Assembly: GCA_036785375.1 (NCBI GenBank)
Contig: JAWMAR010000882.1
Location: 124,001 to 188,000 of the forward strand
Direction of reading: 5' to 3'
DNA from: Leucoraja ocellata
Taxonomy: Eukaryota
DNA length: 64,000 nucleotides
The translations under genes and the position numbers were made by a program. Of the stretch, positions 22,526 to 43,598 are shown in pieces. The notes under the pieces were generated by a model. It saw nothing but the letters and a program-made list of their open reading frames with translations. It searched no databases and was not told the DNA's origin. How positions within the stretch are numbered: the first letter of the stretch is position 1; every line of letters starts with the position of its first letter.

Positions 22526-22745
22526 CTACTTAAAACCATGTCACAAAAGGCTTCTTTCACGGTGCCTTTGTGCTTGGCGCAATGCTACGCAACAGCATTA
22601 TGCTTCAGCTTTATCACTACAGAAACATCAGTTGCTGAGGAAAGGACTACATGCATTGTACTGGGCAGTACAGTTCACCCAAATGCAGAAGGAATTTTTG
22701 GAGAGAAGGCAATACAGACAAGTCTTGGCTCATTGCTTTAACCAA
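22526..22745 (+). CDS. C1orf167: C1orf167-like exon (conserved block KRLLSRCLCAWRN...QLLRKGLHALYWA)
   Basis: Acceptor tcttttag, donor CAA|GTGAGT, phase 2 to 0. Resembles the recalled human C1orf167 segment LLSRCFRAWR...QQLLRRGLRALRWA. Confidence 0.85.
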
Positions 22746-22939
22746 GTGAGTGTTATCAGAATCATGGAGAGTTAGCAAGTGGGAACATGGGCAGTCCCTC
22801 ACAAATATTGTAAGCTTAACTTTAATTATCTTTGTTAGCGGGTCACGCCTCTCCCTTTGATAAAATGTCTAAGTGTAGATGAGTGAGATGCTAGTTTTTG
22901 GATGGGGATTCTAATTTATACTCACACTCTGCCATTCAA

Positions 22940-23720
22940 GAGTCAAGAGCATTTTATTTTTATGCAAATAAAGGAACAATTATTTTTTTCCTTGCAGCAG
23001 CAAAATAGGTTTATAAACACATTACTCAATAGATTATACAATAAACAAACAAGAAAATGAAGATCAATAAATTAAAAAAAACAATGCAGTGCAAAACAAA
23101 AACAAAGCCCGAAGTCCCCAGTAAAACCAAGGCAGTTCTTAGTTTAGTTGAAGTTCGTAGTGCTCAATTGCCTGATGGTTGTTGGGAAGAAGTTGTTCCT
23201 GAACCTGGACGTTAAAGTTGCTATACCTTCTTCCCAATGGCAGGAATGAAATAAGTCTGTAGCCAGGATGGTGTGAGCCATTGATGATGTTGGCTGACTT
23301 TTTGAGGCAGCACCTTTTATAGATTCCTTCAATGGTGGGGAGGAATGATGGAACAGGCAGTGTTCACTTTTTATAATCTCCTTTGTTCCTGGGTGTTTAA
23401 GTTGCTGAGCCAGGCCGTGATACCACCAGTCAATATGCTCTCCACCATACACATGTGGAAGTTCAATAATTTGGTGGCATACCAAATGTCCACAATTTTC
23501 TAAGGAAGTAGAGGCATTGATGGGTTTTTTAAAATTATATCATCAATATGCTAGATCCAGGACAGATCTTCAGAGATAGACATGCCCAGGAACTTGTTGA
23601 TTCTCTCCATCACCGAAACGTTGTTGAAGACTGGTTTATGGATGTTCGGCCTTCCTCTTTTAAAATCAACAAGAAGTTCATAGGTTTTGCTGACGTTGAG
23701 AGCAAGGCTGGACACAAATA
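22940..23720 (-). mobile_element. Rex1-like LINE 3' fragment
   Basis: Similar to 8670-9240; minus peptide TSRFRNNFFPTTIRQL and tail (cttga)n. Confidence 0.7.
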
Positions 23721-24723
23721 GATATTTGTAGCTGTCAGAGGGATGATTAAAAAATACAGCATGGAGTCATGAGTGGGCGGAGTATCCACTCCAACAAAAT
23801 GTTGGGAGAATCTCAGCGGGTCATGCAACATCTCTGGAGAACATGGATGGGTGGAAGCTGCAGTTCCTCATTTCTACATTTTGAGAGAAAGGTCTTTGTT
23901 GTCGCAAATATCTTATAGATCATCCTCTGCGGCTCACACACGCACACTTGCTTCCTACAAAATTGCTGACATTTGAGGAAGAGAATGGAATTTGCTGGAA
24001 TATATTTGAGCGGTAAGAAATACATTCTGCAAAATCATATGAATGAGCTTCATTGTAATGAAAGAAAGTCTGGTAATTCTAAAGACAAGTGGATGGATTC
24101 CAAAACCACGTGAACATCCAGCACCCCATGCTTTGCTAGTCACACGTACATTATGAAGGTTAATGCATTGTATCTTAAGTTCTGTATATAAAGCGGAACC
24201 TTTCATTATGAGATAATGTGGTTGATCGTGAAGAAAGTGGTGCAGTTTTGATGTGAATAGTTAAGTCTGATGGTGAGAAAAAGTGAAGAACTATGATCTA
24301 CAAGCATTACTGGATATTTTGACGGTTGGGAAACATTACTTAAATACACATGTTTTTACTGACGATTCAGTCATTTGCTTGTTTTTAGCAGTTGAAACCT
24401 TGGTGATTTCATTCTGCCTGCCACTCAAGGCAAGGATAACTTGTAAACAAGGAATAAAACTTACACCTGAGATCATACAGTGCAGAAACAGGCCCTTCAG
24501 CCCACTATGTATATGCTGAGCATGTAGTATTCCCATTTACTAGCAATGTAGCCTAACATATTTTTTAACAAGGTACAGAAACCACAAAATGTTTTAAAGG
24601 TGAGATTTATTTTCTTGACTTCCCCTTGTGAAATAATGTCTTTGGGGCATATTATTTTTTTCAAAAAACTTTATGAAGGCGGTTATATTGTGATTATCCT
24701 TATATCCCCTCTGTCTTGCACAG

Positions 24724-24926
24724 TGGAGAGACGCAGCAAACGCTGGCCAATGCCAGCTGATGGCCAAAGCTCCGAATGCAGTCAGCAATTCTTGTTCTGT
24801 TCACCTGAGGATGTCGGCCACACTGCAGCCACTTGGGACGAAAATTTACAGACATATGCGGAAACAACGCAAGCATTTACAACATGAGGATGTACAGTTC
24901 CTGCGTTTGGCAAGTTTTCATGGCAG
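24724..24926 (+). CDS. C1orf167: C1orf167-like exon (WRDAANAG...FLRLASFHG)
   Basis: Acceptor cttgcacag, donor CAG|GTAAGA, open frame, phase 0 to 2. Confidence 0.75.
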
Positions 24927-26216
24927 GTAAGAGTGGACGGTGGTATTACAGCAGTTTGTCAGGAGTTCTTTATTCTTAGAGATGCTATTGCGGCAGAGTT
25001 TGGAACCAAACCTGGTACCTGCTTGCTGTGGAGCTCAGTCCCACATCAGACAGACCACGCACCCATAGGGATATTGTGATATTCTCTATTCTCACCTGGG
25101 ATGTATTTTGCATTTGACCTTTGCAGCTGGTGTGAAATCATCAAACTGCAAGATTTTCAAGTTAAAAATACATATATATAGTGTAAAGAGATGATGTAGG
25201 TTTGAAGCTGAAGTGTGAATATAGCCAGAGGAAATGAATTATGTATATAGCGTAGAGCCAGCTGGTGCAGCTTGATAGAGGATCGGCCTTCTCTCTCACT
25301 TAGAGTAACTGTGGCAGTAATCAATTCTGAGCTGAAGATAAACTGCTTTAAAGTGGGACCCCCGACAGGGATCTGAGTTCTTTGCCGAGAAATTCAATCA
25401 CATTTTGTTGCTTTTTTTTATGAGTGTTCAGCAATTGATTTTTTTTCTGGAATGAAATGCAATAACAAGTACCATGTCCCAGGATGTTTTGGATCTTTAA
25501 AAAATGTTGAAAAGATCTTTTCTGACATAAGTTATCCTTGTGCACTCAATGCAATTTTTACAAGGGATAATATCGTTCCCTTTCAGGCTTTTGCTGATGA
25601 ATTTGACCAGCGACAGTTGTAAGCCATTCCAGTGATAAGTTGCTTTTCACAGAGCAAGGTTGGATAAGGATCACTATATTTTCCTAATTTGTCTTTCATC
25701 CTCCTGACCCCAACCCCCATCCACCACCAACCCACCATTTCCTGAGGTCCATCCTACCCCCGCGAGACAAAGACATTAACCTCTGCCTTGGAACTCATCA
25801 CCTGAGGCCCCTCTGATCCTCCAAAATCCAACACCGGTACTTGAATTTAATTGACCGAACTGTCCTTTTCCAGAGTAAATCAGAGGTAGAACCCAGGATA
25901 TAGTCTGAAGAAAGGACCCGACCCGAAAAGTCACTTGTCCATTCTCTCCCCAGATGCAGCCTGACCCGCTGGGTTCCTCCAGCACTTTGTGTTTTGCTCA
26001 AGATTCATAGTCTCTTGTGTCGTCATCCAACATGTACTCAGGTGACCCACTAAAACCACAGATGACCACAAATGTGGTAGCTGCCATATACTGGGATGTT
26101 AAAATTATGAATATTTATAAATTGGCACAGATTCATAACCTGCTAGTTTTGAAGAGTCAGTGATTTCCGGGATGTCAGTTTGACGTTATAATTCTTCAAT
26201 ATTCTCCTTTTTCCAG

Positions 26217-42311: not shown

Positions 42312-42422
42312 TACGAGCAGAAGCTGGAGCTGCACGCATGGCAGTTGTGGCGGAGACGGTTCATACAGATGCAGGTGTCAAAGGCGTTTGCAGCTCAGGA
42401 CGACAGGATCCTGCTGTTGGAC
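42312..42422 (+). CDS. C1orf167: C1orf167-like exon (YEQKLELHAWQLWRRRFIQ...ILLLD)
   Basis: Acceptor ctcttccccacag, donor GAC|GTAGGT, phase 0 to 0. Confidence 0.8.
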
Positions 42423-42799
42423 GTAGGTACCAAAGTTACATATAGCACCATTACAATATTGGTCACTCCCTCTCTCTTGTTAAATGCCTTGGTGTATCAC
42501 TCAGTCACCTTTCATCATGGTTGAGCCAAATACTGAGGATTAGCAGTCTGGTTGTCTTCCTGTTTTTCCAGGAATTACAACATTCCCCCCCCACCCCACC
42601 CCCACCCTCCTCCCTAAAATCTTTACCTCGGGATCAGAGGTGTGCTGAGGAAGCCTGGCTGCTTTTTCTTTCTCCTACCCAGCAGTAAATTCTGGAGCAT
42701 AAAAGGCTCTCATATTATGTGCTCCCCACACCCCAACTCTCTGTGATCAGCAGTAGGAACAGTTACTGATTTCCACTTTCTCTAAACAATTTACATTGA

Positions 42800-42996
42800 T
42801 GCAGTGGAGGCCAATTCACTGGATGTTTTCAGGAGAGTTAGATTTAGCTCTTTGGCCTAAAGGAATCAAGAGATATGGGGGGAAAAGCAGGAATGGGGTA
42901 CTTATTTTAGATGATTAGCTATTATCATATTGAATGGCGGTGCTGGCTTGAAGGGCCGAATAGCCTATTCCAGCATCTATTTTTCTTTGTTTCTAT
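42800..42996 (+). mobile_element. CR1 3' end fragment
   Basis: Matches the 3' end and UTR of the 39616 copy; a similar fragment lies at 35235-35405. Confidence 0.75.
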
Positions 42997-43544
42997 ATCA
43001 AGATTCTCAGCCTGTTACTCTACAGACCTGTATTCTCCAGTAAATGTAGAGGCACATGTTTAAATCTTTTAAAATGACTGAGTGCCACCCTTTGGTTCAG
43101 GCAAACCAAAGGTGGCCTAAACAAAAAAAATGTTTAAAATTGTCATCTTAAATCTCTGCTAATTCTGAGGGGGCAATTATTTTCACGAACTAGAGGGCAT
43201 GGATTTGCGGTGAGAGGGGATAGATTCATTAGGAATCTGATAGGCAACTTCTTCACACAGAGGGTGGTGGGTATGGGGAATGAGCTGCCAGAGGATGTAA
43301 TTGAGGCAGGCATGTTTCAGCAGCAGTAACACAGAAATAATGATTTTCCTAATTAGTATTTTGTTTCACTCAATACTATTCACTCAAATTTTACAGCATA
43401 AAATTTCACTAATAGGGTGCAAAATTGTTATATAACATTTCAGTCTCTGATGATTTTGAATTATACACGTCAGCAACATAAATCTGATCCTCACTCACAC
43501 TGAATCCACTCACTGTAAATCTGATGTGTCTATTTTATTCTTAG

Positions 43545-43598
43545 GTTTTCACGACCTGGATAAGATTGGTTGTTGAAAAACAGAGAAATACGAGATAG
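43545..43598 (+). CDS. C1orf167: C1orf167-like last coding exon (VFTTWIRLVVEKQRNTR*)
   Basis: Acceptor ttttattcttag; completes the Trp repeat LLLD|VFTTW; TAG at 43596-43598. Confidence 0.7.
   Translation, partial: VFTTWIRLVVEKQRNTR

Follow-up and report, generated by a model that had tools for sequence, protein, structure and literature searches.

The locus between the AGTRAP and MTHFR genes of the skate Leucoraja ocellata raises the question of what a protein carrying a long row of tryptophans might hold together, and where. We analysed a window of 64,000 nucleotides (GCA_036785375.1, JAWMAR010000882.1:124,001-188,000, forward strand), to whose coordinates the positions below refer. An earlier note on this DNA had named the gene C1orf167 and described its protein as uncharacterised and built from about 20 SFI1-type centrin-binding repeats. 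We find that the gene is the C1orf167 orthologue and that its product is a real, well-supported SFI1-type repeat protein whose family can be traced from sea anemone to primates. The repeats are almost certainly homologous to those of SFI1. Judging from sequence, the C-terminal array of about 20 repeats likely serves as a filament scaffold to which centrins bind in a row, probably at centrioles or basal bodies.

The gene occupies 13860-43598 (+) and has 19 coding exons in a single frame, with GT-AG at all 18 introns and no internal stops. Its start therefore lies well upstream of position 22526, where the earlier note had placed it. The exon model was built by mapping the sawfish orthologue, which is the closest named protein (68% identity over 1,490 columns), and then reading the splice sites. 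A short run of N falls within one intron, where the frame requires no exon. The protein has 1,514 amino acids, or 1,523 if the later donor of exon 17 is used (~1,520 in round figures). The devil-ray orthologue backs the later donor, and residue numbers here follow the 1,523-residue form.

Exon 1 (13860-15647, +; residues 1-596) encodes a Ser-rich, Pro-containing N-terminal region that is 62% identical to the sawfish protein and has no Pfam family and no Sfi1-type site. It is followed by the short coding exon 2 (17555-17610, +). Repeats begin in exon 3 (22526-22745, +), which holds the remnant of a first arm, namely Trp632, a position near residue 659 that lacks Trp, and most of the Trp689 repeat. 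The 57-residue spacing from Trp632 to Trp689 is also present in most relatives. Exons 4 to 8 (24724-24926, 26217-26300, 27589-27779, 29527-29719, and 29939-30083, +) contribute Trp689, after which comes a degenerate gap where repeat-like sites are few and scattered. The main block begins in exon 9 (30390-30565, +) with Trp998, whose codon is at 30501, and continues on the same strand through exon 10 (31571-31779; Trp1024, Trp1054, and Trp1083), exon 11 (32523-32667; Trp1116), exon 12 (33150-33402; Trp1142, Trp1175, and Trp1201), exon 13 (36023-36140; Trp1226 and Trp1255), exon 14 (36723-36867; repeat position 1288, where Met replaces Trp), exon 15 (38816-39017; Trp1314, Trp1344, and Trp1373), exon 16 (40507-40649; Trp1395), and exon 17 (41234-41369, alternative donor 41342; Trp1431 and Trp1456). 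Exon 18 (42312-42422, +; Trp1482) matches the C-termini of the devil-ray protein and of relatives P0005-P0011, and exon 19 (43545-43598, +) supplies Trp1511 and the stop codon. The two donors of exon 17 are in phase, and both forms occur in database models of other sharks, while in the sawfish model this exon runs on to a stop.

The layout is thus a three-position remnant (22526-24726), a degenerate gap of 270 amino acids, and a block of 19 positions (30390-43598). Among these positions are 20 repeats anchored by Trp, two in the remnant (632 and 689) and 18 in the main block (998-1511), and two that lack Trp (~659 and 1288). Spacings in the main block range from 22 to 36 residues, against about 23-35 in Sfi1-repeat proteins. 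All 20 of the segments listed in the earlier note can be read both in the exon translations and in the spliced model, but "built from" overstates their share. Because residues 1-614 contain no hydrophobic-x2-W site, the repeats occupy only ~40% of the protein, and every one lies within its C-terminal 60%.

Could the likeness to Sfi1 be a compositional artefact of a helical or coiled-coil protein rich in Trp, Arg, and Leu? This suspicion is fed by shark Pfam scores that sit at the cut-off and by modest ESM Atlas scores (Sfi1 and DUF4684 clusters at 0.79-0.86), which serve only as leads. Scanned exon by exon, the best Pfam Sfi1 (PF08457) score is 20.8 bits against a cut-off of 22, and exon 15 alone of nine exon frames matches (E 1.6e-4). 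We compared the two repeat blocks (641 aa, picked after the repeats had been seen) with 2000 composition-preserving shuffles. The hydrophobic-x2-W pattern occurs 23 times, versus 10.2 +/- 2.6 after shuffling, and L-x3-hydrophobic-x2-W occurs 13 times, versus 2.9; neither count was reached in any of the 2000 shuffles. A hidden Markov model (HMM) of 289 invertebrate repeats gives the main block 14.0 bits, whereas the best of 200 shuffles scores 3.2, and a profile made from 10 invertebrates alone gives the window model 202 bits. When Trp is used as the sole anchor, with a hydrophobic residue at -3 splitting ties between close Trp residues, the logo of the window protein has Ala at -16 in 5 of 23 sites (p 0.02) and a charge at -4 in just 1 of 23 (p 0.012). 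The triads have the Sfi1-type orientation 13 times and the XPC-type orientation three times. Furthermore, there is no power at the heptad period, on which ground a coiled-coil reading was rejected, and invertebrate orthologues score up to 157 bits with Pfam Sfi1. We regard an artefact as very improbable, since it is largely refuted by the logo and the shuffles.

The family in which these repeats recur is far larger than C1orf167 alone. When a profile made from one eel and four sharks and rays was searched against 1.84 billion representatives, it returned 84 proteins, of which 66 were scanned with Pfam and 30 had their names looked up. The 11 named invertebrates comprise a sea anemone, a brachiopod, an annelid, a nemertean, three molluscs, two echinoderms, a hemichordate, and an amphioxus. 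Their proteins have ~40-55 sites and, in 10 of the 11, 1,848-3,005 residues, and every one of them passes Pfam Sfi1 (31.5-157 bits). No arthropod or nematode is among the 30 looked-up names, a sample too small to infer absence. DUF4684 is passed by 15 of the 66 scanned relatives, and the mammalian DUF4684 and invertebrate alignments match one another over 333 columns (HHalign 98.3%, E 2.6e-14).

The spacing of the repeats is as telling as their sequence. Ordered Trp-Trp distances of 26, 30, 29, 33, 26, and 33 recur across relatives, and from the data we derived a barcode of seven Trp residues (offsets 0, 26, 56, 85, 118, 144, and 177). Among the 78 proteins of at least 300 aa, it is exact in 38, including the window model and those of sea anemone, amphioxus, baboon, and galago. 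Another eight proteins match six of the seven positions, and 900 shuffles gave five at most. The Trp1175 repeat of exon 12 keeps its length of 33 residues from sea anemone to baboon, and a 59-residue gap between Trp sites spans the exon-14 position in all eight sharks and rays. In the sawfish block, all 16 repeat-anchor Trp residues are Trp in at least 80% of the aligned rows of 36 non-shark relatives. No other residue type is kept as well as Trp (mean 0.74, next 0.33), and in an alignment of 45 sequences the seven columns that hardly vary are all Trp. Because an aligner favours Trp matches, the alignment-free barcode is the stronger test. The two sequence tests set beforehand, profile similarity and conserved Trp positions, both speak for SFI1-like repeats.

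With Trp as anchor, the Sfi1 logo reappears in sharks, teleosts, and invertebrates; in eutherians it is weaker. At 333 sites from six invertebrate orthologues, Ala stands at -16 in 88 (background 7%), Leu-Leu at -8/-7, Phe or Leu at -3, and Arg or Lys at +1, and charge falls to 5% at -4 and 12% at +4, versus 29.5%. The corresponding figures for Sfi1 are 2.9% and 7.0% versus 29.5% at logo positions 22 and 30, which equal -4 and +4 (Li 2006; PMC2063913). Repeat spacings in the C1orf167 family cluster at 25/26, 29/30, 33, and 36/37 residues, and the repeat lengths of fungal Sfi1 likewise peak one helical turn apart (PMC2063913).

Several observations weigh against our reading of the array as a centrin scaffold. 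The strict consensus A-x7-LL-x3-F/L-x2-W-K/R, on which the earlier note had leaned, matches none of the repeats of the window protein, and no shark repeat fits it. The Kilmartin scan pattern is found twice, where its threshold is three, although this pattern is a search filter rather than a family definition, and teleost orthologues score four and six matches. In the window protein, the depletion of charge at +4 falls short of significance (4/23, p 0.29), and the invertebrate logo sites come from orthologues and hence are not independent. Pfam Sfi1 is passed by none of the 15 DUF4684 proteins and by just three of nine shark and ray proteins, and then barely (sawfish 23.3 bits). Overall confidence is low in the AlphaFold2 model of the devil-ray orthologue (mean pLDDT 64.7, pTM 0.25). 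A sequence search of the PDB and a Foldseek search retrieved no Sfi1 or POC5 structure at E <= 0.001, an outcome to be expected for long helices. In the excerpted account of a two-hybrid screen with centrin-2 (placenta and preadipocyte libraries), POC5 was recovered and C1orf167 was not (PMC2700515). Finally, squamates match just two to four of the seven barcode residues, and the family decays in vertebrates, sharks having lost most of the first arm.

This last point admits a different interpretation, in which the ancestry is centrin-binding but the decaying vertebrate array binds centrin poorly or not at all, so that only the giant invertebrate proteins work. Site numbers do fall, invertebrates having 40-55, sharks 22-28, and squamates 16-21, and the lost parts of the array differ between lineages. 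Moreover, in eutherians the -7 position is hydrophobic in just 23% of sites, and proline rises to 2.5%. Yet shark spacings are near-identical over eight species, the reading frame of the skate gene is intact across 19 exons, the barcode is exact in baboon and galago, and Trp remains the residue that is kept best. We therefore consider decay to the point of lost function improbable.

Of the array, sharks lack most of the first arm and the hinge, squamates the barcode segment, and eutherians the end of the second arm. The hinge is a Ser-rich stretch with the motif SSGFHS that lies between two repeat arms, from annelid, hemichordate, and amphioxus to reptiles including squamates. The motif is absent from sharks and from the window protein. 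It resembles what we take to be the phospho-degron pattern of beta-TrCP.

That the gene is C1orf167, as the earlier note had proposed, follows from both its relatives and its neighbours. The shark-based profile pulled in proteins named C1orf167 or DUF4684, and 13 of the 30 looked-up relatives (from lizards, python, gharial, koala, horse, camel, and baboon) belong to clusters named C1orf167. In a search among the collected relatives only, baboon C1orf167 matches shark proteins with E values down to 8e-29, and the sawfish orthologue matches DUF4684 (Pfam PF15736; E 9.5e-5). An AGTRAP exon lies upstream (1114-1410, +; Pfam PF06396, E 1.5e-26), and three exon frames of MTHFR lie downstream on the opposite strand (49942-52861, -; Pfam PF02219 and PF21895, E 3e-22 to 2e-26). 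AGTRAP-C1orf167-MTHFR is what we take to be the human gene order.

Devil-ray and eel orthologues bear the NCBI name "protein SFI1 homolog", and one may ask whether the window gene is simply SFI1, or a copy of it that arose recently in sharks. The human SFI1 gene and EIF4ENIF1 are arranged head to head. In the skate genome, an EIF4E-T match lies on contig C463, and 200 kb alongside it was read. On the opposite strand to this match and head to head with it, at ~795,000-850,000 (-), are exon frames with Sfi1-type repeats, four of which have two sites 33 residues apart, and this gene is probably the true SFI1. Pfam Sfi1 missed all six of its tested exon frames, so weak single-exon Pfam scores tell little. 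The window gene is at odds with an SFI1 orthologue in its AGTRAP-MTHFR locus and in its mixed repeat lengths, whereas human SFI1 has 23 repeats, of which 21 are of 33 residues (Kilmartin 2003, who defined the Sfi1 consensus and demonstrated 1:1 centrin binding; PMC2173958). Furthermore, its seven-Trp barcode is shared with a cnidarian. Identity with SFI1 is exceedingly improbable, and the best reading is that the window gene is a paralogue of SFI1.

What would such an array bind? Residues 986-1515 contain no Pro in 530 positions, 100 Lys or Arg, and 35 Asp or Glu, and the main block is predicted to form a long, proline-free, basic single helix that would measure ~77 nm if straight. In the AlphaFold2 model of the devil-ray orthologue, helices of 105-203 residues span 310-511, 528-730, and 741-845, and the region of the degenerate gap is mostly coil of low confidence. 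Calmodulin typically targets basic amphipathic helices anchored by Trp, and the genome carries calmodulin and many other EF-hand genes. The repeats might accordingly bind calmodulin or another EF-hand protein and form a helix like a lever arm outside the centriole, an option that the earlier note had also left standing. It has become the weaker alternative, as the full IQ motif (IQ-x3-RG-x3-R) occurs in none of 11 proteins, each with zero to three IQ-like sites, and a calmodulin-type IQ reading was rejected on this count. In addition, Ala at -16 is accounted for by contacts with the centrin N-lobe in the crystal (PMC2063913), and POC5, whose repeats are similar, was reported to bind centrin and not calmodulin (PMC2700515). 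Taken together, these points make a calmodulin-type ligand quite improbable.

Centrin binding by at least several repeats, in turn, is quite likely from the sequence. If yeast Sfi1-centrin crystals are a guide, the L-x3-F/L-x2-W face of each repeat would enter the C-lobe pocket of one acidic centrin, and a small or hydrophobic residue 16 positions upstream of the Trp would contact the N-lobe. Repeat lengths that differ by whole helical turns could be accommodated if the N-lobe slides by one turn, as in the 26-residue Sfi1 repeat that is centrin-bound in the crystal with its N-lobe shifted in this way (PMC2063913). By homology with Sfi1p, the helix may be wrapped by a series of centrins to form a filament. 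A centriolar or basal-body location is slightly favoured by analogy with SFI1 and POC5 (PMC9627676, PMC2700515, PMC12674131), and a role specific to sperm seems doubtful.

More tentatively, and with rather more against than for the parts taken jointly, C1orf167 might be the vertebrate remnant of a giant, animal-wide centrin filament protein that existed beside SFI1 in the cnidarian-bilaterian ancestor. Such a protein would have arms of ~20 and 28 centrin sites, more than 200 nm in total, joined by the Ser-rich SSGFHS hinge, which could act as a phospho-degron. At the basal bodies of sperm or motile cilia, it might build a centrin fibre that responds to calcium or sets length, with DUF4684 as the form found in mammals.

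Two side observations concern other frames in this genome. Contig C299 carries two intact, intronless, centrin-2-like frames of 171 aa (one at L001:1414-1929, the other in L002), whose best PDB match is centrin-2 (E 2e-87) and which look like retrocopies. Mammalian CETN1 is a retrocopy. Both frames have Trp at one place where we presume a basic residue to be usual. In the window, open frames at 39594-40112 (+), inside an intron of the gene, and at 57967-58422 (+) resemble 3' fragments of LINE reverse transcriptases.

Among known systems, SFI1/Sfi1p (PF08457; PMC2173958, PMC2063913, PMC9627676) is the closest. It shares tandem Trp repeats of the same logo, ~20 in a row, low proline content, a predicted long single helix, and a non-repeat N-terminal region. 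Unlike the uniform 33-residue repeats of SFI1, those of the window family are mixed (22-37) and in fixed order, and invertebrate C1orf167 relatives have two arms, a Ser-rich hinge, and about twice the repeat number. The window protein also differs in its 600-residue N-terminal region, repeats that run to the C-terminus, and another locus, and its centrin binding and location are predictions. Vertebrate POC5, which is distinct from SFI1, binds centrin 2 and 3 through its Sfi1-like repeats (PMC2700515), and thus such repeats work outside SFI1. Its 575 aa are described as comprising three predicted repeats along with coiled coils and a signature domain, whereas the window protein has ~20 repeats. 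Giant Sfi1-repeat proteins of ciliate myonemes (10.1101/2024.11.07.622534) resemble this family in their very long centrin-binding arrays; the likeness concerns repeat type. Mammalian C1orf167/DUF4684, seen via non-human mammals, has the exact barcode in baboon but only ~10 clear main-block repeats, degenerates beyond them, and has no Pfam Sfi1 label. We take human C1orf167 to share the locus order.

To call the gene uncharacterised, as the earlier note did, needs qualification. The NCBI names cited above, and UniRef names of several fish and invertebrate orthologues ("Sfi1 spindle body domain-containing"), show that automatic annotation already records the Sfi1 likeness. A partial human protein on Kilmartin's list, CAD38978, is Trp-rich in parts and has 10 repeats in a stretch of 272 residues (PMC2173958). 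The baboon orthologue has 10 repeat sites over ~275 residues, patches of 12% Trp, and two matches to the Kilmartin scan. CAD38978 may be a C1orf167 clone. It is absent from the nine matches of the baboon repeat block to short proteins, and the baboon cluster has no human member. A literature search that covered neither subscription journals nor supplements such as interactome tables found no link between C1orf167 and centrin. C1orf167 and SFI1 were named together only in unrelated places, CAD38978 appeared only in Kilmartin, DUF4684 was absent from the papers matched in the search for it, and none of the papers pairing C1orf167 with "centri" or "sperm" was about centrioles by title or abstract. 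That C1orf167 is listed in an exome table and on a panel of infertility genes was rejected as functional evidence because the gene neighbours MTHFR, and a docking of C1orf167 with KIAA0825 (PMC10137575) is modelling only and was set aside.

What is new here is the link between an unstudied human gene, together with DUF4684, and an ancient and much larger Sfi1-repeat family. The mechanism of a centrin scaffold is already known, so the surprise is limited. Nonetheless, animal centrins form several pools at centrioles and cilia, and in the papers cited here SFI1 and POC5 are the only scaffolds named that carry Sfi1-type repeats. A further scaffold with 20-50 sites would be a candidate anchor for centrin pools that lack a known one, for example the foundation of the ciliary central pair, which is marked by centrin (PMC11781205). 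Variants in C1orf167/DUF4684 surface in studies of the MTHFR locus and of infertility without a mechanism, and the present reading gives the human gene and its domain a function that can be tested.

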